This document shows, piece by piece, positions 14,918 to 32,155 of a stretch of DNA of 64,000 nucleotides. Location: positions 32,001 through 96,000 of the IMG/VR virus record IMGVR_UViG_3300010355_000898. One strand, given 5' to 3'. Numbering within the stretch: the first letter of the stretch is position 1; each line of letters starts with the position of its first letter. The notes beneath the pieces were generated by a model, which did no database searches, was not told the origin of the DNA, and was given only the letters and a program-made list of their open reading frames with translations. This stretch comes from a virus (Duplodnaviria > Caudoviricetes). Both the position numbers and the translations under genes were made by a program.

Positions 14918-15149
14918 ATGTGGTAGTGCGAAAGGACATGTAAAAATACACTATCATGGTTCACGTACACCACCAATTTGTGTTTGGATGATACCAGGTG
15001 AACGCAGTATTGAACAATACATAAAATTCCCAGGAATTAGGGGTGTATTGAACAAGAATTCAATAGTATTGTGGGGTCATATACCCAATGCAATCTTGAC
15101 AAAGATAAACATTAACGATATTTTGAGCTATTTGCATAGTCAAATTTAG
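14877..15149 (+). CDS. Small hypothetical protein
   Basis: Fills the gap before dnaE part 1; contains HYHGS. Confidence 0.4.
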   Translation: MNTFTVEKSITVNKCGSAKGHVKIHYHGSRTPPICVWMIPGERSIEQYIKFPGIRGVLNKNSIVLWGHIPNAILTKININDILSYLHSQI

Positions 15150-15160
15150 AAAGAAACATT

Positions 15161-16984
15161 GTGACAAATCATATTGATGAAAGGAACAGCACTCTGGTGC
15201 CAAAGAAGTTTTTTGGACTTCATAGTCACACAGGAGCTTCAACCTATGATGGTATGGGTCCTGCAGAAGATCATTTCAAATTTGCATTGAGCAATGGACT
15301 TGATGGGATGGCAATCACTGAACATGGTCATATGAACAGTTTTGCACAAGCATATCTCTTCAATCAGAAGTGGAAAAAAGCAGGAACACAGTTCAAATAC
15401 ATTCCAGGAGTTGAGGCATACTATCACCCAAGTCTTGAACAGTGGGCTCAAGACAGGGCTCTGTATGAGGAAGCAAAAGAGGATAAAAAGCTTCAGAAGA
15501 AACTGAAAAAACGTGAAGAAGGTCTCAAGAACATCAGTGTGAAGACAGATGATGACGACGACATTGTTGATATTGAAATGTCAAATGCATTGACAATTGA
15601 GAATGAGGATGAAACGCGAAATATAAAGGCCTTCAATCCTCTCAATCGTCGCCATCATCTTGTTGTGCTCCCAAAGACATCAGGTGCCCTCAAGAAAATA
15701 TTTCACATTGTTTCCAGGGGTTATATAGAAGGGTTCTACAGATTTCCCAGAATTGATTTGGGGATGATCCTGAAGGAGGCAAAGGATGACATCATTCTGT
15801 CATCTGCATGTCTTGGGGGTCCAATATCATATGCTGTGTTGCAAACATTGAGAACTGTCAATTTTGATGATCTCAATCCTGAAATTCTTGATGACGAAAA
15901 CATCATGCGCAGAGTTCTGAATGAGATTGGGAACATAGCTGATCCACTCATCAGTGCAGTTGGTGTGAAAAATTTTCTTCTTGAATTGCAATTTCACAAA
16001 ATTCCTGCTCAGGATGTTGTCAACAGAGCAATCATTGAATTTGCAAAAAGGAATGGAATGACTGAACAGTTGATTGCAACGTGTGACAGTCATTATCCAA
16101 GACCTGATCTGTGGCGTCATAGAGAGATGTACAAAAAACTTGGGTTCATGAATTATAGTGAATTGGGACCTGAAAGCTTGCCAAAGTCTGTTGAGGATGT
16201 GAAAGCACTCCTGTATCCAAAGAATGCAGAGCAGATGTGGGAAGGTTTCAAACAACGCCAAGATCAGCACAAGTTTTACAGAGAAGATGGTGTTGAACAG
16301 TTGGTGTGTGATGCAATTGAGAGGACACATGATATTGCTCACAATGTAATTGAAGATATCAAATTTGATCAGGGATACAAATATCCAAAATCGGTTGTAC
16401 CCAGTGATACAACGGAATTCAAATATTTGTGCAAACTTGTAAAGGATGGAATGATCAAAAAAGGTTTGGATAAAAAGCCTGAATATGTTGAGAGGATGAA
16501 GTATGAGTTGAGCATCATCAAGAAGCTTGACAACGCTTCATACTTTGTCACATTGGCAGGAGCACTCAGATTGGCAAGGGATGTATGTCTTCTTGGGGTC
16601 GCAAGAGGTTCATCTGGCGGTTCATTGGTTGTTTATCTATTGGAAATCACAGACATTGACCCTTTAAAGTATAATCTTTCATTCGAGAGGTTCCTGAATC
16701 CTCATAGATGTTTACCAGGTGAAACATTAGTTCGAACACCAATTGGCAATAAATCAATTTCAGAACTTAATATTGGGGATGAAATTATTGGTGGAAGTGG
16801 AGAAACAAGAAAAATTCTTGACAAATTTGAAACAAAAACATTGCAGTATGTTAAGTTCATTGTGAATGGACAAACTATTGTTTGTTCTAGAAAACATCGT
16901 TGGCCAATTATTCGTAATGGAAAATTTGAATTAGTTGAGGCTGAACACTTATGTAAAGATGATCAGATAATAGCTAATGATTAG
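15161..16984 (+). CDS. dnaE: DNA polymerase III alpha (DnaE) part 1: PHP domain, start of palm, split-intein N-half
   Basis: GLHSHT..S.YDG, AITEHG, PGVEAY, SACLGG, CDSHY, ARGSSGGSL, FERFLNPHR then CLPGET. Confidence 0.95.
   Translation: MTNHIDERNSTLVPKKFFGLHSHTGASTYDGMGPAEDHFKFALSNGLDGMAITEHGHMNSFAQAYLFNQKWKKAGTQFKYIPGVEAYYHPSLEQWAQDRALYEEAKEDKKLQKKLKKREEGLKNISVKTDDDDDIVDIEMSNALTIENEDETRNIKAFNPLNRRHHLVVLPKTSGALKKIFHIVSRGYIEGFYRFPRIDLGMILKEAKDDIILSSACLGGPISYAVLQTLRTVNFDDLNPEILDDENIMRRVLNEIGNIADPLISAVGVKNFLLELQFHKIPAQDVVNRAIIEFAKRNGMTEQLIATCDSHYPRPDLWRHREMYKKLGFMNYSELGPESLPKSVEDVKALLYPKNAEQMWEGFKQRQDQHKFYREDGVEQLVCDAIERTHDIAHNVIEDIKFDQGYKYPKSVVPSDTTEFKYLCKLVKDGMIKKGLDKKPEYVERMKYELSIIKKLDNASYFVTLAGALRLARDVCLLGVARGSSGGSLVVYLLEITDIDPLKYNLSFERFLNPHRCLPGETLVRTPIGNKSISELNIGDEIIGGSGETRKILDKFETKTLQYVKFIVNGQTIVCSRKHRWPIIRNGKFELVEAEHLCKDDQIIAND
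16709..16984 (+). mobile_element. Split intein 1, N-fragment (91 aa)
   Basis: CLPGETLV block A; CSRKH block B; ends EAEHLCKDDQII. Confidence 0.9.
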
Positions 16985-17906
16985 AAAATGTGTAAATTGT
17001 AATTGTGATTTTATCATTGATGATACAAACAAAAATTACTCAATTCAAAAACGACGTTTTTGTGGTTCAAAATGTAAAAATGCATGGAATAGGCGTCCTG
17101 AAAATGGTGAAAAGATTGTTAAACAATGTATCATTTGTGGAAAAGAGGTGCGAGTTTACAAATCACAATCAGCTAGAAAGGTTTGTTCAAAAGAATGTAA
17201 AAATATCAATCAATCACAACGATTGTCAAGTGATAAAAAAAGCTTAAAATGTGAACATTGCGGGAAAAATTTTGATGTAAACATTTCTTGTAATAGAAAA
17301 TATTGTTCTCCGCAATGTTCATCTCTTTCTAAGAGAACATCATTGGAAAAACAATGTGAAATTTGTAATAAGACATTTCAAATCAAAAAGTCAGCTTATG
17401 AACGAAAGCGTTTTTGTTCTAGAAATTGTCAAATGATAGCACAATCAAATGGAAAAATTCATATTCATGTCAATGGAAGAAGTGGATACAGAATTGATAT
17501 AAAGGGTAATCATTATTTCAAATCTGCGTTTGAAGCTGATTATGCAAGATATTTGCAATATTCAAATATTGCTTATGAATATGAACCAAAAACATTTGAG
17601 ATATTGGTTGATAATCAAATAAGACATTATACGCCTGATTTTTGGAATAATGAGTTGAATTGTTATATTGAATTGAAAGGCGTAAGAAAATCTGAGTCAA
17701 ATAATTTTTCATTATTGATCAACTCAAATTCTGATGTTAGACAACGTGTAATTGATGAACAACATGTTAACATTAAAGTTATTTATATGAATGATTTTTA
17801 TTCTTTTCTTAAAGAAAAGAATTTGTATAGTGTTATACCAAATATTGAAAATAGAAATTATGGAGCAACAAAATATCTTGTCAAACAACATAATTACAAG
17901 CGTTGA
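16977..17906 (+). CDS. Free-standing homing endonuclease: CxxC/CSxxC zinc repeats + PD-(D/E)XK domain
   Basis: Four CxxC...C(S/G)xxC repeats; FKSAFEA, YEYEPKTF, YTPDF, YIELKG; lies between intein halves. Confidence 0.85.
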   Translation: MIRKCVNCNCDFIIDDTNKNYSIQKRRFCGSKCKNAWNRRPENGEKIVKQCIICGKEVRVYKSQSARKVCSKECKNINQSQRLSSDKKSLKCEHCGKNFDVNISCNRKYCSPQCSSLSKRTSLEKQCEICNKTFQIKKSAYERKRFCSRNCQMIAQSNGKIHIHVNGRSGYRIDIKGNHYFKSAFEADYARYLQYSNIAYEYEPKTFEILVDNQIRHYTPDFWNNELNCYIELKGVRKSESNNFSLLINSNSDVRQRVIDEQHVNIKVIYMNDFYSFLKEKNLYSVIPNIENRNYGATKYLVKQHNYKR

Positions 17907-18012
17907 ATTGTGTGAATATGATGAAGAACAAATTTTGTATGATATTACTGTTGACGTCGATCATACATTTTTTTGTAAACAAGGAAATTCTGATTGGTAT
18001 TTGACACATAAT
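17860..18012 (+). mobile_element. Split intein 1, C-fragment (about 51 aa)
   Basis: LYDITVDVDHTFF block F; THN|S block G. Confidence 0.9.
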
Positions 18013-18714
18013 TCAGGTGCACCAGACATAGATTGCGACATCAGTGATCGTGATAAAGTTCTTGAAGTATTGAGAGAAAAGTTTGGAATGAACAATGTTA
18101 TTCCAATTTCAAATATCAACACGTTCAAAGTGAAAACGCTCCTGAAAGATATTTCAAAGTTTTATGGAATTCCATTTGAAGAAGCAAATGAGGCAACAAA
18201 AACTGTTGAAAAGGAGGTCAGAAAGGCAACCATGAAACATGGTGATGATAAAAACCTTTTTGTTCTCAAATTTGAGGATGCAATGAAGTATTCAGAAAGT
18301 TTCAGAAGTTTTATTGAGAGGCATCCTGAGGTTGCAGAGAGTATGGAAATTCTCTTTAAAGAGCAGAGATCATTGGGTCGGCATGCTGGAGGTGTTGTCA
18401 TTATGGATGATGCAATGGGAGAAATGCCTCTCATTACAAATGGTGGTGAACCTCAAACGCCTTGGGTCGAAGGTGTTGGTGGAAAAACGCTTGAACCAAA
18501 TGGAATCATTAAATATGACCTGTTAGGTCTTGAAACAATGAGACTAATTGAAAATACAGTTGAAAAGGTCATAAAGGGTAAAGGAGGCATCAAACAGATT
18601 GAACTTGAGGATGGTACAGTGATGAGATTGCTACCAGATCAATTGGTTATGACACAAAGAGGTGAAGTGTTTGCTAATGAATTGAAGGATGATGATGAAA
18701 TCTTGACGCCATGA
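17860..18714 (+). CDS. dnaE: DnaE part 2: intein C-half, catalytic palm/thumb, degenerate intein-like tail
   Basis: YLTHN|SGAPDIDCD, GRHAGGVV, KYDLLGL; ATG at 17860 inside the endonuclease 3' end. Confidence 0.93.
   Translation: MEQQNILSNNIITSVELCEYDEEQILYDITVDVDHTFFCKQGNSDWYLTHNSGAPDIDCDISDRDKVLEVLREKFGMNNVIPISNINTFKVKTLLKDISKFYGIPFEEANEATKTVEKEVRKATMKHGDDKNLFVLKFEDAMKYSESFRSFIERHPEVAESMEILFKEQRSLGRHAGGVVIMDDAMGEMPLITNGGEPQTPWVEGVGGKTLEPNGIIKYDLLGLETMRLIENTVEKVIKGKGGIKQIELEDGTVMRLLPDQLVMTQRGEVFANELKDDDEILTP
18589..18714 (+). other. Degenerate, non-catalytic intein N-fragment-like tail on DnaE part 2
   Basis: IKQIELEDGTVMRLLPDQLVMTQRGEVFANELKDDDEIL aligns with the distal half of IntN2; lacks Cys1 and the block-B His. 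Confidence 0.75.
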
Positions 18715-18965
18715 TGATAACAATAAAAATGATTGTGTATCGTAAAGGTACGTTAAAGTTTCAATACAATCAACGTTTTGAGAATGGCCATCATGATTTT
18801 TTATTGAAAGAAATCTATGAAGATGTTGTTGATCATGTTTGGCATATGGACGTATATGATACACGTACGTTGACAGGAATGAAACATACACAATTCATCA
18901 TCAATGATTACAGAACAGTGTTGAATAGGTTGAAGCGCGATGTTAACAATACAAAAAATTGTTGA
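18711..18965 (+). CDS. Small hypothetical protein
   Basis: ATGA-coupled to dnaE part 2; MIVYRKG motif. Confidence 0.55.
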   Translation: MMITIKMIVYRKGTLKFQYNQRFENGHHDFLLKEIYEDVVDHVWHMDVYDTRTLTGMKHTQFIINDYRTVLNRLKRDVNNTKNC

Positions 18966-19176
18966 GAATGAACTTGAAAAGAAGGGTTACATATCTCACA
19001 ACAGGTCAGTAACAAAGCAGATGTCATATTATGATATGAATGCGTCAGTTGAACAGAATGGATTGAAATTCATTTCAAGATTGAGTTGTGAACCATACAA
19101 TGTTTGTGTGCTCTTTTACAGGTTTGATCAGTATCAATTCAGTTCAATACTGAATATTGTTCACAATCTTCCATGA
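18940..19176 (+). CDS. Small hypothetical protein
   Basis: Overlapping tiled ORF. Confidence 0.5.
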   Translation: MLTIQKIVENELEKKGYISHNRSVTKQMSYYDMNASVEQNGLKFISRLSCEPYNVCVLFYRFDQYQFSSILNIVHNLP

Positions 19177-19180
19177 ATGA

Positions 19181-20323
19181 TCATTTCTTCCCTGCATGTT
19201 TTTTCAACACTTTGCTGAATGATTGTTTTGGAATATTGGCAAGTTTATCAACAATTTTTTGCTTTTTATCCTGTTCCCATGGATAAATCCCAGAGTTCTC
19301 TGGGTCTGCATCAAACCACATGATTTCACCAACCTTGATATCACTGAGTGATATCACTTCACGCTCATTTGAATATTCATCACTGATGTTTTTGTACCAC
19401 AATCTTGCATCAAGGAAAACATCATCACTGTTCTCATCAGTGTAGGCAACCATTACAATGGGAACCGTTCCACTTTTCATATTACTGTTTTCATTGGCAA
19501 AACGTTTTGCTGTTCTCAGACTCTTAGTCCAACTTCCTGCATTCTTTTTTGGGTGCCATGTGAAACGTTTTTCAATGTGTCCATCCTTGATTGCAACCTC
19601 ACCCTTCTTGGCACCAATAGCAGCCTTCAACCATTCATATTTGACGCCCATTCCCCTGTAAACTTTTTGAACATTTGGTCGTGTGAACACATCATCATAC
19701 AGTCCCTGTTTCAGGATGTTCCTGATTGCAGTGACATACTGAATTTGCATACCAGCATGATCAAGATGACTGCTGATTGCAGTGTGCAGCCGTTGCTCAA
19801 ATTTGTTATCCAATTCTGGCAGATTTCTTTCACTGCCAAAAGCAATCAGATCAAGACGACCCCCACTGTTCTTGCTGCTCTTTTTCAAGAATTTTTGTTT
19901 CTGTTTTTCAGCCTTTATGAATTCATCATGAAACACAGTGTTATACAATTCATGAGCCAAACCTTTTGGATCTTTTCCAGATAGCATATCAAACAATTTT
20001 GTGAACACAGGTTTGAGCACAGTGATCTGTTTTTGATCGAGTCGACCACTAAGATTGAACTCTTTGTATGCTTCTGCCTGTTCATCAGACAAATTTAGCA
20101 ATTGTTTGTAAAAATTGTATCTCTTTTTAGATCTGTCAATTGTTGACAATCCTTTACCACTACTGACGTTGTTGTAAATGATTATTATTGTTTTGATTTC
20201 ATTATCAAATTCCCTGAATTTATCAGCGTATTCTTCGTTCAAAATTTCAGTCAAATACAAAAAATCAGTCATATATTCTTTGAAAAGTTTACCAATCTCT
20301 TTGTCACTTTTGAAATATTGCAT
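19181..20323 (-). CDS. Putative ADP-ribosyltransferase (R-S-E clade) domain protein
   Basis: KVYRGM, GSWTKSLRTAKRFA, YSNEREVI; only long credible minus-strand gene; ATACTTA upstream. Confidence 0.7.
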   Translation of the reverse strand: MQYFKSDKEIGKLFKEYMTDFLYLTEILNEEYADKFREFDNEIKTIIIIYNNVSSGKGLSTIDRSKKRYNFYKQLLNLSDEQAEAYKEFNLSGRLDQKQITVLKPVFTKLFDMLSGKDPKGLAHELYNTVFHDEFIKAEKQKQKFLKKSSKNSGGRLDLIAFGSERNLPELDNKFEQRLHTAISSHLDHAGMQIQYVTAIRNILKQGLYDDVFTRPNVQKVYRGMGVKYEWLKAAIGAKKGEVAIKDGHIEKRFTWHPKKNAGSWTKSLRTAKRFANENSNMKSGTVPIVMVAYTDENSDDVFLDARLWYKNISDEYSNEREVISLSDIKVGEIMWFDADPENSGIYPWEQDKKQKIVDKLANIPKQSFSKVLKKHAGKK

Positions 20324-20338
20324 ACTAAAACTTAATTG

Positions 20339-20345
20339 TAAGTAT
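20339..20345 (-). promoter_or_regulatory. Putative late promoter ATANTTA
   Basis: ATACTTA on the minus strand, 15 nt upstream of the ART-like ATG. Confidence 0.55.
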
Positions 20346-20347
20346 AT

Positions 20348-20602
20348 GTGAATACTGTCACAGTTGGGTTTTATAATCAGAGCATGAACTCATTGAGACC
20401 AACAGATATATCAGGTTTGATCAGGTACACAATTGAACAGTTGTCAGAGATATCTGCACAGAATGGTGAGCTGAAATTGTCAACAGATGATTTAGAGAAG
20501 AGATTGCGATCTGCAATTGCAGTGTTGAAGGTTGTGGATGAAAAGATTGAACTTGTGAGAATGATGTTGGTAAAACTTCCAGATGATTGTGAACAGGAAT
20601 GA
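20348..20602 (+). CDS. Small coiled-coil hypothetical protein
   Basis: ORF divergent from the ART-like gene. Confidence 0.5.
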   Translation: MNTVTVGFYNQSMNSLRPTDISGLIRYTIEQLSEISAQNGELKLSTDDLEKRLRSAIAVLKVVDEKIELVRMMLVKLPDDCEQE

Positions 20603-20741
20603 ATTATGTTAACGTTGAGAATATACAGAGACAACATTGGATCCATATCAGGAAATGATCTCACACAGTGTGAAGAGCACACAGTCAAGATGATATCAAA
20701 AAAGCGCCCAAGAATTATGAAAATCATTATTGGTTTATTGA

Positions 20742-21002
20742 ATGAACACAGTTGAAATTTTGTTGTCATCCAAAATTGACACACTCAAAGTGTACAAAAC
20801 TGGACTTTGGGCATTTATGTATTCAGGAAATTGTGTTCTGCTGTGGAATCCACGAATTGTTAACAGAACAATTTCTGATCATGATGGCTTTTTGGTTAAC
20901 GATCTGAGCACTGATGTCATGACATTGTGGGATTGGGAAACTATGACAAGATTGTGCAGTCTGAACACTGATGAATTCAGGGAAAGATTTGGCTTATTGT
21001 GA
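20742..21002 (+). CDS. Small hypothetical protein
   Basis: LKVYKTG motif; tiled. Confidence 0.5.
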   Translation: MNTVEILLSSKIDTLKVYKTGLWAFMYSGNCVLLWNPRIVNRTISDHDGFLVNDLSTDVMTLWDWETMTRLCSLNTDEFRERFGLL

Positions 21003-21244
21003 ATCTCAAATTGAAGGTGCACAGAGCTGGTTATGGCAGTTTTGTTTGGGGAGATCATAAAGTTGTATTTTTTCCGGAAATTCCGAAAATGTATGACGAC
21101 AGTAGAATTCTGATGTCATATTCAAGAATTCACATTCTAAATCATTGGTTATTCAAATATAATCATCAATTTTTTGTTGAAATGAGTGAGTGCAAAAACG
21201 TTGAACAATTGATGAAAGTTTTCAATGATTGGAAATTCAAATAA
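20999..21244 (+). CDS. Small hypothetical protein
   Basis: LKVHRAG motif; GTGA overlap. Confidence 0.5.
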   Translation: MNLKLKVHRAGYGSFVWGDHKVVFFPEIPKMYDDSRILMSYSRIHILNHWLFKYNHQFFVEMSECKNVEQLMKVFNDWKFK

Positions 21245-21530
21245 ATTCAATAGTGAACAGTTGATGGAAATGTGGAATTCTGTTATTCGAACAACAGACT
21301 ATGTTGACAAAAAATGGATTGGTTTAAGAGTTTATTGTGATGGTGGTTGGCTTGTGTTTGTGTATGTCAGTGACAGATTGGGTGATGACATATGGGCACC
21401 CAATTTTTATACCAAACCAGAAAAGATGACAAGATTTCCAGATTTGGAAACACTCAACTATGATGATTTCAAAAGGGTGATATTGGATGAAAATAAGAAA
21501 TATTACAACAGAACAACCAGAATTTCTTGA
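21225..21530 (+). CDS. Small hypothetical protein
   Basis: LRVYCDG motif; overlaps the start of dnaE part 3. Confidence 0.5.
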   Translation: MIGNSNKFNSEQLMEMWNSVIRTTDYVDKKWIGLRVYCDGGWLVFVYVSDRLGDDIWAPNFYTKPEKMTRFPDLETLNYDDFKRVILDENKKYYNRTTRIS

Positions 21531-22119
21531 TATCAAGAAGTGGTATGAACAGAATCTTCATCCTGATGCAAACAATTATGATGATCAGAAAACATTTGAT
21601 GTCTACAAAGGTGAAGCATTCCCTGGGATATTTCAGTTGACATCAAAGGGTGCGCAGAGACTGTTCAGACAAGCAGAGCCAAAGTCAATTGTTGACATTG
21701 CTGTGTTGACAGCAATCTATAGACCTGGACCCTTGGCTGCAAATGTTGACAAGATCTATCTCAAGGCAAAGAAGGGTGAAAAGTTTGAATGGGGGCATCC
21801 ACTCTTTGAAAAAGTGTTGGGAGAAACATATAATTGTCTCACAGGTGATACACTAATTCTATTGGCAAATTTGCAACAAAAAAGTTTAAGTGATATAGAA
21901 ATTGGTGATGAGATCATATCATTCAATGAAAAAACTCAACACTATGAGCAAGACATTGTTAAGGCAAAAGTTTGTAATGGAACTCAAGATCTCATTATGA
22001 TAGAAACTGAAACAGGGACATTAAAATGCACACCAGAACATAAAATTATGACAAAGAGAGGTTGGGTATGTGCTGGTGATTTAATGGAAGATGATGAGAT
22101 TGTGAGTTATGAAATTTAG
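21487..22119 (+). CDS. dnaE: DnaE part 3: IntC-like stub, fingers segment, split-intein N-half
   Basis: DDQKTF, GIFQLTS, AIYRPGPL, LGETYN|CLTGDT. Confidence 0.93.
   Translation: MKIRNITTEQPEFLDIKKWYEQNLHPDANNYDDQKTFDVYKGEAFPGIFQLTSKGAQRLFRQAEPKSIVDIAVLTAIYRPGPLAANVDKIYLKAKKGEKFEWGHPLFEKVLGETYNCLTGDTLILLANLQQKSLSDIEIGDEIISFNEKTQHYEQDIVKAKVCNGTQDLIMIETETGTLKCTPEHKIMTKRGWVCAGDLMEDDEIVSYEI
21835..22119 (+). mobile_element. Split intein 2, N-fragment (94 aa)
   Basis: CLTGDTLI block A; CTPEHKIMTKRGW block B. Confidence 0.92.
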
Positions 22120-23089
22120 TAAACGATGTGTACATTGTAATATAGAATATCTTTCAAAAAAAATTGATTCAAAATATTGTTCAAGAGCTTGTAAAGATGC
22201 GCATTCTAGAACATTAAAAAAGGGTGTATGTGTTATTTGCGGTTGTGAAACAAGATGTGAACGTGTAAAAACTTGTTCAAAATATTGTAAGTCTCTTTAT
22301 CTTAAAAGCAAAAAAGAAACAATTGAATGGAAAGAAGCGCGAACTGAAATAATATGTCAAATGTGCAATAAGACATTTATTGTTTCAAATAGTAGAAAAT
22401 CACGTAAATGTTGTTCGAAAAAATGTGCTTATGAATTAAGATCAATTTTGTACAAAGGAAGAACAATAACGCCTGAATGGAAAGCAAATCAAAATTTAGG
22501 TAAAAAACGTGAAAATATTGTGAAATTTGGTGATTTTGAATGTGAAAAATGTCACAAAAAATTTGAAACAAATCTTTCTTTAAGGTCTCATAAATCATAT
22601 TGTAGTGCTGATCAAGAACAACGAAATGTTACGTGTGAAATTTGTGGTAAAGTTTTCAAAAGAAATCGAAATTTTCTTGCACATTATCAATTACATGACG
22701 AAGAAAAATATAGGCAGCATTGTTTATCAGTTAAAGAAGGTGTAAAATATCGTTCTGCACCTCAAACAACATCAAATCAAGAATTGCAATTCTATAAAAT
22801 ATTGTGTGATTTTTATGGTCAAGATAACGTTGTACACAAGTTCAAACTACAAGAAAGTGGTCATGAATATGACTTTTATGTCAAAAGTCTAAATCTAATC
22901 ATTGAATTTGATGGTGATTATTGGCATGGAAACAAAGAATGTTTTGAATTAACAGATAAAATGAAACAACAATTCAATATTGATATATCACATACAAAAC
23001 GAGCCATAAAAGAAGGTTACGATTTACAAAGAGTATGGGCATCAAAAATGGACATATATCCAAATGAATTAAGAGTTTTACCAATATGA
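22109..23089 (+). CDS. Free-standing homing endonuclease: zinc repeats, C2H2-type fingers, Vsr/DUF559-like domain
   Basis: CxxC...CSxxC repeats; CEICGKVFKRNRNFLAHYQLH; YDFY, IIEFDGDYWHG. Confidence 0.85.
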   Translation: MKFSKRCVHCNIEYLSKKIDSKYCSRACKDAHSRTLKKGVCVICGCETRCERVKTCSKYCKSLYLKSKKETIEWKEARTEIICQMCNKTFIVSNSRKSRKCCSKKCAYELRSILYKGRTITPEWKANQNLGKKRENIVKFGDFECEKCHKKFETNLSLRSHKSYCSADQEQRNVTCEICGKVFKRNRNFLAHYQLHDEEKYRQHCLSVKEGVKYRSAPQTTSNQELQFYKILCDFYGQDNVVHKFKLQESGHEYDFYVKSLNLIIEFDGDYWHGNKECFELTDKMKQQFNIDISHTKRAIKEGYDLQRVWASKMDIYPNELRVLPI

Positions 23090-23193
23090 TTTACACTAAA
23101 GTGAAATCTATAAAACACATCAATAAAGATGTGACATATGATATTCAAACTGGGAATCATAATTTCATTGCAAATGGAATTCTCGCACATAAT
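23086..23193 (+). mobile_element. Split intein 2, C-fragment (36 aa)
   Basis: MIYTKVKSI...TYDIQTGNHNFIANGILAHN|C. Confidence 0.93.
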
Positions 23194-24396
23194 TGTTTAA
23201 TTTTCCAAGAGTCAGTCATGGAATTGGCCGAAATCATTGGGCTTTTCCCCAAAGACCAATGTGATAACGTTCGTAGAGCAATTATGAAACGTGATCTTTC
23301 AAAGGGTGAGGCTGCCATAGCAGAAGCAAAGAAAATGGAAGATCAATTTGTTGATGGTGCTGTCAGTCAGGGTATCAAAGAAGAGACAGCACGACAAGCA
23401 TATCAGAATATATTGTTCTATTCTTCATACGGGTTCAACAAAAGCCATGCAATCGCTTATGCAATTGATTCATATATGTGTGCATGGCTACTGACACACT
23501 ATGAAAAGGAATGGTTGACAACCTATCTTGAGAGCATGTCAAACAATCCTGATGATAAAGCAACAGCAATTGGTGAAATCAGAAAACTTGGTTACAAGAT
23601 TGTTCCAATTGATGTGCAATATGCAGGAAAAGGTTGGACATGCATTGAAGGAAAAAAATTCATGCCATCACTCCTATCATGTAAGGGAGTTGGTGAGAGT
23701 GCAGTTGAAGAATTGTTGTCAATGCGTCCAATCACTGATTTCAAAGATATGTTTTGGAATGCTGATGGAAGTTGGCGACCATCAAAATTCAACTCAAAAG
23801 CACTTGATGCACTCATTAAGTTGGGAGCATTCGGTTCATTGGATGTTGTTGGCTCAGGAAAGCTGTTCAGATCATACAAACATATGCATGATGTTATGAT
23901 TGTGCACAAGGATGAAATCAAAAAGGTTTCAAAACGTGATCAGTATCAGGGTTACAACAATTTTTTGCGACTCATTGATGAGTATGCACAAAAGTATGAT
24001 GCAGAAGAGTTGCCGGGTGAATGGACAAAACGTGAATTGGCAGATTTTCAAGCAGAAATTCTTGGGACAGTTGATGTAAGAATGATCATTGATGATGAAA
24101 TCTGGGGTACACTTGAAACAAAAGGCATCAAATCTGTTGATGAACTTGAGCAGGGTGAGAAGGAGGTCGTTTGGTTTGTTGTCAATGGTTCAAATCTGAA
24201 AAGGACAAAGACTGGAAAAGAATTCCTGAGTGCTGAAGTCATGGGTTCAAAATCAAAAATTGAACGCATGAACATTTGGGGTTGGAAGAGTGATAAGAAC
24301 GTGATCAAGAATTTGACATTGTGCATAGCAGAGGTTGAAAAGAATGATTTTGGTGCATCAACAACAAGTTGGAAATTGAAAACATTGGGTGAATAA
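23086..24396 (+). CDS. dnaE: DnaE part 4: intein C-half, fingers/HhH/OB C-terminal region
   Basis: ILAHN|CLIFQES, SYGFNKSHAIAY, KGVGES, LIKLGAF. Confidence 0.94.
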   Translation: MIYTKVKSIKHINKDVTYDIQTGNHNFIANGILAHNCLIFQESVMELAEIIGLFPKDQCDNVRRAIMKRDLSKGEAAIAEAKKMEDQFVDGAVSQGIKEETARQAYQNILFYSSYGFNKSHAIAYAIDSYMCAWLLTHYEKEWLTTYLESMSNNPDDKATAIGEIRKLGYKIVPIDVQYAGKGWTCIEGKKFMPSLLSCKGVGESAVEELLSMRPITDFKDMFWNADGSWRPSKFNSKALDALIKLGAFGSLDVVGSGKLFRSYKHMHDVMIVHKDEIKKVSKRDQYQGYNNFLRLIDEYAQKYDAEELPGEWTKRELADFQAEILGTVDVRMIIDDEIWGTLETKGIKSVDELEQGEKEVVWFVVNGSNLKRTKTGKEFLSAEVMGSKSKIERMNIWGWKSDKNVIKNLTLCIAEVEKNDFGASTTSWKLKTLGE

Positions 24397-24834
24397 GTGA
24401 ACAACACACAAGAAACAACAGAATTTGCAGGTTTGGTTTTCACGCATTTGGGTGATGGAATGTACATGTACAGTGACGCCAAGATTGAGATCTGCTTGCA
24501 GTTTTACAAGGATACCGTTTGGATAGCAGAGTTGACAGATGTTGAACACAAGTGTATTGAATTCAGAATGTCAAACAGTGATCCAGAAAATTGTATCATT
24601 GATGTTCTGAACAGCGCAAAGACAGAACTCATGAAACGTTTATGCACACAGATTGATGTGTTAAATCAGTGTATCAGACTGCAAGGAAATCCAGTTCCAA
24701 TTCCAATCACGTTTGAAACAAATGTTGAAAATGAATCAGTTGACAAAACTGGAAGATTTGACCATGTGATCTCAATCGCAAAAAATGTTGCAAATAGGAT
24801 TGTAAAATCAGGACGTAAAATTGTAGTATGGTGA
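24397..24834 (+). CDS. Hypothetical protein
   Basis: Directly follows dnaE part 4. Confidence 0.55.
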   Translation: MNNTQETTEFAGLVFTHLGDGMYMYSDAKIEICLQFYKDTVWIAELTDVEHKCIEFRMSNSDPENCIIDVLNSAKTELMKRLCTQIDVLNQCIRLQGNPVPIPITFETNVENESVDKTGRFDHVISIAKNVANRIVKSGRKIVVW

Positions 24835-31864: not shown

Positions 31865-32155
31865 ATGAAGAAACTTAGTGAACGTGAACTGATCAATCTC
31901 ATTCGAGAAGAGTGGAATAGAAAAATTTCTTCACTTGCTGAAAATTCAGGCGTTGATTTGATGTTCAATGCAAAAACAAAAGATGGTGAAAAGAAATCAA
32001 TTCTGTCAACTGGATTGAAGATTAAAAATAAAGAAACTGGTGAATTGTATACTGTGAAAGAGGTTGGTATCACTGATGCAACAATTGCTTCACCACAAGG
32101 TGAACATGTTCATGTCACAAAGGATGATCTTGAAAAGAATTACGAATTGGGTTGA
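31865..32155 (+). CDS. Hypothetical late/virion protein
   Basis: ATACTTA at 31852; MKKLSERELINLIREE leader. Confidence 0.65.
   Translation: MKKLSERELINLIREEWNRKISSLAENSGVDLMFNAKTKDGEKKSILSTGLKIKNKETGELYTVKEVGITDATIASPQGEHVHVTKDDLEKNYELG

Follow-up and report, generated by a model that had tools for sequence, protein, structure and literature searches.

How can a DNA polymerase tolerate a break in its gene at a place where nothing can splice the protein halves together? The question is raised by a wastewater jumbo phage whose C-family polymerase gene, dnaE, is spread over four plus-strand genes according to the open reading frame (ORF) listing and Pfam. We analysed 64,000 nucleotides of its genome (hereafter the window), positions 32,001 to 96,000 of the IMG/VR virus record IMGVR_UViG_3300010355_000898, which is 269.5 kb long and occurs in activated-sludge and wastewater metagenomes. 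Fractured genes, in which a split intein and a free-standing homing endonuclease gene lie between the two halves of a gene, were described by Dassa et al. (2009, PMC2677866), and by their motifs breaks 1 and 3 of this dnaE are ordinary examples with an endonuclease gene between the intein halves. Break 2 is different. Piece 2 ends in a 41-residue tail and piece 3 opens with an 8-residue head, and the residues kept and lost make it nearly certain that this break has an intein ancestry and can no longer splice. We propose that tail and head dock the two polymerase halves non-covalently, a plausible reading by analogy with natural split inteins, to which we give a probability of roughly 0.6.

The first-pass annotation of this locus held that piece 2 closes with a tail that is not polymerase sequence, and named in advance what would count against this, namely unsplit homologues carrying the same segment natively. 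Two IMG/VR relatives bear on the point. L005 has an unsplit DnaE of 1206 residues, 76% identical in the best aligned segment, and DnaE of L004 is unbroken at the break-2 site, with another split intein further downstream. Because both run straight through the junction, the segment is not native polymerase: in the alignment native sequence ends at 18588 and picks up again at 21511, and neither tail nor head has a counterpart. The break sits 22 residues beyond the third catalytic aspartate, in a loop whose sequence differs even between L004 and L005; it is therefore a variable loop, as first supposed, and not a conserved motif. A BLAST alignment that extended piece 2 through residue 287 into a Streptomyces phage DnaE would make the tail a native polymerase motif; we rejected it as spurious because the unsplit relatives place the true counterpart of that motif in piece 3.

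The tail resembles the distal half of an N-intein (IntN). Tail residues 4-40 align to residues 56-91 of IntN2, the genuine N-intein at break 3, with a Smith-Waterman score of 79; shuffles had a mean of 23.2 and a standard deviation of 4.1 (z = 13.5), and 0 of 5000 reached 79, so that a likeness first noticed by eye stands up to testing. With the Pfam model Intein_splicing the match is weak (E = 0.023). We then built a profile from the anchor helix and the tail, searched it exhaustively with HMMER against 1.84 billion protein representatives, and examined the best 150 of its matches, 268 of which have E <= 0.001. About 100 of these 150 carry the block B motif TxxH, most of them also the block A Cys; only the tail part of the profile aligns to them, and the ones inspected are genuine split N-inteins that close their proteins at the C-terminus. 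Another 20 or so are fragments of DnaE with this tail at their end and with neither block A Cys nor TxxH. The tail part of the profile also matches the solved NrdJ-1 split intein (residues 61-107, E = 1.9e-5), aligns to residues ~55-91 of the Npu DnaE intein (E = 0.15) and has weaker matches to Mtu RecA and other inteins at equivalent residues; the anchor part matches E. coli Pol III alpha 553-596, third catalytic Asp included. The Hint similarity that a profile search had been expected to reveal is thus found both in the genuine N-inteins among the best matches and in NrdJ-1. A word-indexed search with the tail returned only the window's own protein, a result that reflects the word index and length filter.

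Homology to Hint by sequence covers the distal IntN half only, and what the tail lacks is as telling as what it keeps. Block A with its N-terminal Cys/Ser nucleophile is absent, with no Cys or Ser where the tail starts after the native loop, and it is absent in the ~20 DnaE clusters as well. Block B has also lost TxxH, which reads LPDQ in the window. In the tails of relatives the Thr is replaced by a hydrophobic residue and the His mostly by Gln or Glu, and the true N-inteins from the same search keep T..H. Conserved across the tails are the glycines of the turns, the alternation of hydrophobic residues and an acidic D-D-I at the end; both catalytic block B positions are replaced. The earlier description of the tail as a catalytically dead N-intein sub-fragment is borne out: read from its residues, the break-2 element is not an intein by any catalytic criterion.

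The other side of the break was said to resemble the first strand of a C-intein (IntC) that passes into polymerase without block F or an HN/C junction, and this too agrees with what we find. A search for piece-3-sized relatives gave 16 further proteins, 48-74% identical, which begin where piece 3 does and open with a short basic strand, conserved among them, ahead of native PTF..W[YF], so the head is conserved in 17 piece-3 proteins. Blocks F and G, the terminal (H)N and a C-extein +1 Cys/Ser/Thr are absent from these heads, which are 8-14 residues long and followed by native finger sequence. An 8-residue head is not assessable alone against a single C-intein, and the heads were assessed as a family, with a matrix derived from residues 1-9 of 24 true C-inteins of the same loci and 2010 ORF starts of those loci as background. 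The 17 heads outscore the ORF starts, several of them falling in the top 1% (Mann-Whitney p = 3e-11, a value that overstates independence because the heads are related to each other). Net charges are opposite, with a mean of -3.8 for the tails and +1.9 for the first eight head residues, and complementary as in natural split inteins. Two other searches with piece 3 were uninformative: a single-sequence search of viral contigs found no relatives, and the alignment query, limited as it was to the 80 sequences with the best coverage, gave unsplit forms alone. A C-intein hidden in the ORF that follows the tail (18711-18965) was considered and rejected, as this ORF does not rise above shuffles against IntC1 or IntC2 and has no Pfam match; it weakly matches a PHROG of unknown function (E = 0.059).

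Tails that appear to be dead half-inteins are widespread and not a one-off, with ~20 DnaE clusters among the best 150 profile matches. L090, L092, L094 and L095 share tail, site and head with the window: their upstream dnaE fragment breaks off at precisely this loop and closes with an alignable tail of 40-55 residues. These relatives and L100 have a free-standing endonuclease gene between the halves. In L090, L092, L094 and L100 the gene right after the tail encodes a zinc-finger protein of 534-569 residues; three of these proteins, encoded by orthologous genes, were compared and are ~30% identical over their full length, and their nuclease part resembles the endonuclease associated with the window's second split intein. 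L095 has a 355-residue relative with a weak Pfam Vsr match (E = 0.00031, below the curated cut-off). Because this gene stands directly between the two peptides, the full arrangement is tail, endonuclease gene, head, which accords with descent from the central part of a fractured-gene cassette. The first-pass annotation had suggested that the middle of such a cassette was captured; the Vsr-like gene between tail and head speaks for the cassette, but the capture was not unique.

The window itself has no endonuclease remnant in its spacer, as judged by tblastn with the endonucleases of five relatives and the window's own. We infer that it holds a derived copy, in which the endonuclease gene was lost and its place taken by 2.8 kb of small ORFs. 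In another context, that of P0004, just 112 bp without any gene separate a 735-residue N fragment from a piece-3 homologue. The split with both its peptides can thus outlive the endonuclease.

A maximum-likelihood host tree from 192 palm columns upstream of the break (56 rows) interleaves tail-bearing and unsplit genes, and requires at least 10 state changes, of which 5 or more are imposed by branches with good support. The window's nearest neighbours on it are the unsplit L004, L005 and P0142, and the next is P0042, whose tail is of a different subtype. Because of this interleaving the cassette looks mobile, a conclusion that is well supported, and the pattern in the tree is better explained by recurrent homing into the site, and loss, than by a single ancient split. 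The tails fall into a subtype that keeps T-x-(N)RG (window, L090, L092, L094) and one with L-x-DGSW and a longer P-[LF]-E end (L095, P0042, P0043, P0049, P0067, P0101). The site is also unusual. True inteins of the DnaE family lie before PDID, after FQ, before L(I/T)FQES and after GFNK, conserved motifs followed by Cys or Ser, whereas the dead-tail site has no such residue, and none of the best 150 profile matches is a full N-intein at this site.

Other loci show further arrangements of these elements. In P0059 (456 residues), DnaE is continuous across the same loop with a degenerate tail-like insert fused in frame (~195-250), which may be a scar left after endonuclease loss and tail-head fusion. 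The radical-SAM-like P0097 (281 residues) has a complete mini-intein inside its CxxxCxxC motif and, after a short extein, a C-terminal tail of the dead half-intein type with neither block A nor TxxH, so the module is not confined to DnaE. L096 (1-6050) has a piece-3 homologue, P0013, without a dnaE N fragment within 6 kb upstream, where the unrelated genes RlaP, MT-A70 and thymidylate kinase are found; by analogy with cyanobacterial dnaE-n and dnaE-c, its fragments may be dispersed. L004 (5526-6449 and 9215-10456) has a free-standing zinc-finger endonuclease-like ORF just upstream of an otherwise intact dnaE start, and a Ser1 split intein with its own endonuclease gene at the GFNK/S site.

What would this arrangement mean for the polymerase? 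Trans-splicing at breaks 1 and 3 would join piece 1 to piece 2 and piece 3 to piece 4. Break 2 cannot splice, and therefore the mature polymerase would consist of two chains, PHP-palm-tail and head-fingers-HhH. The ends facing each other at break 2 are split-intein leftovers, the last ~40 residues of an N-intein on the palm and the first beta-strand of a C-intein on the fingers, with both catalytic ends of the intein missing. The acidic tail would fold as a beta-meander, as in a Hint domain, and would pair with the basic strand of the head in the way in which these parts associate in natural split inteins. Such docking would hold the polymerase fragments without a peptide bond and make the insertion tolerable, and the tail, zinc-finger Vsr-like endonuclease gene and head would be one cassette that enters the same DnaE surface loop repeatedly. 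In split inteins a disordered anionic part of IntN captures the cationic IntC electrostatically, as put in a passage of PMC11766414 that cites Shah et al. 2013, and Dassa et al. emphasise a pair of long, oppositely charged antiparallel strands (PMC2677866). By analogy, the parts kept at break 2 are the parts that drive split-intein association. That tail, endonuclease gene and head constitute a distinct class of mobile element, which neutralises its insertion by a non-covalent half-Hint docking pair and not by splicing, is a tentative proposal that we put at a little under even odds.

What speaks for docking is indirect: selection against change in the tail, the charge complementarity kept across relatives, and a complex prediction that is passed weakly. 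The AlphaFold2 model of anchor and tail, which agrees with a Hint-derived fold, has one helix and five short strands, with a mean predicted local distance difference test score (pLDDT) of 69.7. For the complex, which the first-pass annotation had proposed to model from parts 2 and 3, we used the anchor and tail alignment (23 rows) and the first 60 residues of piece 3 (17 rows). The prediction gave weak support, with a score of 0.34 against 0.05 for the best of three controls, and three runs agree in at least 80% of contacts, with a partner pLDDT of 50-51. Of 80 solved complexes 58 reach the mark, as do 2 of 110 mismatched pairs; with scores <= 0.60 only 7 of the 80 do so, together with both mismatches. 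Because both chains include native neighbouring helices, the weak pass cannot be credited specifically to tail and head.

Several points weigh against docking. Besides the relatedness of the heads in the matrix test, the complex prediction, for all its weak support, reported no contacts. Foldseek places almost only inteins in the top ranks for the tail model (34-40 residues superposed at 0.9-2.1 A), with no match at E <= 0.001 and E-values of 0.09-2 that are not significant. The head comprises ~8 of the roughly 36 residues of a C-intein, and is so short that a half-Hint unit would be incomplete and its stability uncertain. Fragments of one fold often associate unaided. Finally, in the NrdA protein of Aeromonas phage Aeh1 the corresponding tails are essential for activity, unneeded for heterodimer formation and needed for a later assembly step (PMC3045599); given this case, the term clasp, under which the peptides were first described, may be the wrong job description here too.

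Of the alternatives, the one that survives best, though we consider it unlikely, is that tail and head are an inert scar, what remains of a split intein that decayed or was copied in part, without a function today. The halves would associate by their own fold, as split enzymes that reassemble unaided often do, and the peptides would merely provide a stop codon and a start codon. The shortness of the head and the weak pass of the complex prediction suit this idea, and the in-frame insert of the unsplit P0059 looks like just such a tolerated scar. Selection on the tail does not suit it. Nei-Gojobori ratios of nonsynonymous to synonymous substitution (dN/dS) in three moderately close pairs, at 45-54 codons each a small sample that counts against our reading, indicate that the tail is under purifying selection: 0.28 for L094 and L100 (dN 0.27, dS 0.98), 0.22 for L090 and L102 (dN 0.10, dS 0.44) and 0.17 for L092 and L101 (dN 0.54, dS 3.2). 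The flanking palm has a ratio of ~0.1 in the sole pair with unsaturated palm dS; the tail is therefore less constrained than the polymerase, yet far from neutral. An inert scar would also have to explain why the frame stays open and the structural positions are kept in ~20 clusters whose anchor-plus-tail region is only 25-48% identical to that of the window, why the opposite charges of tail and head are conserved, and why in P0004 the split persists with both ends and no gene between the pieces.

A second alternative grants the peptides a function other than docking, and we regard it as improbable. They might shape the active-site region or make a higher-order replisome contact, or they might benefit the mobile element, either because they abolish the site that the endonuclease targets or because they link translation of the endonuclease to dnaE. 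The Aeh1 NrdA tails, dispensable for heterodimer formation yet essential for activity (PMC3045599), are a precedent for the former, and the closeness of the break to the third catalytic Asp is in keeping with it; an overlap of 8-50 nt between the endonuclease ORF and the 3' end of the tail in relatives is in keeping with the latter. Tail and head are, however, kept in the window and in P0004 though the endonuclease gene is gone, and the parts kept are exactly those that drive split-intein association.

Covalent joining of the halves by some other route is very improbable. A passage of PMC2677866 cites engineered three-piece split inteins, and T4 gene 60 is translated with bypass of a 50-nt gap (bioRxiv 10.1101/2022.08.31.505936), so an unconventional or three-piece intein with parts in trans, RNA splicing or translational bypass each deserves a hearing. 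None of the ~20 clusters, however, has a junction nucleophile, TxxH, block F/G or terminal Asn, and a three-piece intein cannot work because block A must be, and is not, attached to the N-extein. The gap to be crossed is 2.8 kb with an opposite-strand gene inside it, and Rfam finds no intron or other RNA family in 15000-24500. In the covered parts of contigs from two RNA-library and two DNA runs no joint skips the spacer, and both the stop of piece 2 and the start of piece 3 are spanned by collinear contigs; the evidence is weak, since it consists of contigs alone and those of the RNA libraries may be DNA.

That dnaE is a decaying pseudogene or the arrangement an assembly artefact, as its three breaks and the presence of a PolA-like ORF elsewhere in the genome might suggest, is scarcely credible, since all four pieces are open with catalytic motifs present, the identical piece 2 occurs on contigs of at least four independent samples, which excludes an assembly error, this single-copy dnaE is the only one in the record and no PolB was found there, and the same architecture is under selection in many relatives.

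The layout of the locus is given in Table 1. Across the four pieces the DnaE domains are complete in Pfam: PHP, palm with three catalytic Asp, fingers and HhH. Pieces 1 and 3 as a whole span 15161-16984 and 21487-22119, and piece 2 is the ORF 17791-18714, whose called gene begins at 17860, has 284 residues and matches Pfam DNA_pol3_alpha at 100-260. The 41 tail codons occupy 18589-18711, and the TGA stop of the tail overlaps the ATG of the next ORF. A Shine-Dalgarno-like GGGTGA precedes the start of piece 3 at 21487.

Table 1. Features of the four-piece dnaE locus, in coordinates of the window
Feature	Coordinates	Strand	Identifying features or matches
dnaE piece 1 extein: PHP and first palm part	15161..16708	+	Pfam PHP and DNA_pol3_alpha
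IntN1, genuine N-intein	16709..16984	+	Cys1 and S..H block B
Zinc-finger homing endonuclease gene in split intein 1	16977..17906	+	PHROG HNH/endonuclease/resolvase; Pfam Phage_endo_I
IntC1	17860..18012	+	Ends THN, then Ser +1
dnaE piece 2 extein: palm, helix up to the break	18013..18588	+	PDIDCD aspartates; third catalytic Asp in KYD
41-residue tail and stop	18589..18714	+	Splicing-dead homologue of the distal N-intein half
Spacer, 2.8 kb, seven ORFs of unknown function, one on the minus strand (19181-20323)	18711..21486	.	
8-residue basic head of piece 3	21487..21510	+	Resembles first C-intein strand
dnaE piece 3 extein: fingers start	21511..21834	+	Pfam DNA_pol3_finger; alignment to unsplit relatives
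IntN2, genuine N-intein	21835..22119	+	Cys1, TPEH; the window's closest paralogue of the tail
Zinc-finger, Vsr-like homing endonuclease gene in split intein 2	22109..23089	+	
IntC2 (23086-23193) and dnaE piece 4 (remaining fingers, HhH)	23086..24396	+	IntC2 ends AHN, then Cys +1

The seven spacer ORFs, including the one on the minus strand, have no credible Pfam or PHROG assignment. The spacer differs between near-identical strains: L007 (3500-7220), one of the contigs that share piece 2 and whose spacer flanks are 96-99% identical to those of the window, has an extra 321-residue minus-strand ORF beside the 380-residue one. The PolA-like ORF, of 412 residues, lies outside the window (G000:C1:27441-28091; DNA_pol_A, E = 4.5e-19) and is the record's sole other polymerase-family match.

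If the peptides dock the halves, break 2 would be a natural case of an intein that lost catalysis and kept association. Homing endonuclease cassettes could then colonise loops that lack the Cys, Ser or Thr needed by a true intein, which would add to introns and inteins a third means by which a homing element can reside inside an essential gene, and a route by which essential genes become permanently multi-subunit. The same module would be expected in other split phage enzymes, and the tail of the radical-SAM-like P0097 is already an instance. An acidic beta-meander of roughly 40 residues and a basic strand of roughly 10 would also be a small natural heterodimerisation pair, of which many diverged variants exist, possibly orthogonal. 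With two live split inteins and one dead one, this polymerase would be a convenient test bed that brings the three junctions together and has an internal control.

How does break 2 compare with known systems? It resembles the fractured genes of Dassa et al. in affecting a phage DNA-metabolism gene (DnaE is among theirs) with adjacent halves, in the Vsr-like zinc-finger endonuclease gene that its relatives have between these halves, and in end peptides homologous to intein parts; NrdJ-1, the best solved match of the tail profile, is listed among the split inteins of those loci (PMC2677866). It differs in keeping only the distal IntN half and the first IntC strand, in lacking all five catalytic residues listed there, so that splicing is impossible, in occupying a variable loop without a +1 nucleophile, and in the loss of the endonuclease gene from the window. 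The cyanobacterial split DnaE intein (Npu/Ssp) likewise has DnaE as host protein in two chains, and its capture-and-collapse association uses an anionic distal IntN and a cationic IntC start, the parts kept at break 2, but that intein is complete, splices and occupies another DnaE site. In T4 topoisomerase gp39/gp60 a mobile endonuclease cassette (MobA) also splits a replication enzyme into non-covalently associated subunits, and Crona et al. noted tail-like extensions on them (PMC3045599); unlike break 2, the MobA element carries a translational bypass, and the bioRxiv study cited above deals with that bypass and with MobA, not with inteins.

The closest functional parallel is nrdA-a / mobE / nrdA-b of phage Aeh1, whose tails act as interaction domains (Crona et al. 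2011, PMC3045599). There, too, a mobile endonuclease gene interrupts an essential enzyme, no splicing occurs, and unsplit homologues lack the additional peptides at the C- and N-termini, although the charges are reversed (basic C-tail, acidic N-tail). The first-pass annotation knew of no described example: our literature search found no published description of non-splicing tails derived from inteins, but for their function Aeh1 NrdA is a precedent. Crona et al. speculated that these ribonucleotide reductase tails originated from a degenerate intein, with no similarity detectable, and break 2 would supply such a case. For Aeh1 NrdA the function of the tails was shown biochemically; at break 2 function is proposed, but intein ancestry can be demonstrated by sequence. 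Break 2 works like the Aeh1 NrdA case and descends from the split inteins of fractured genes.

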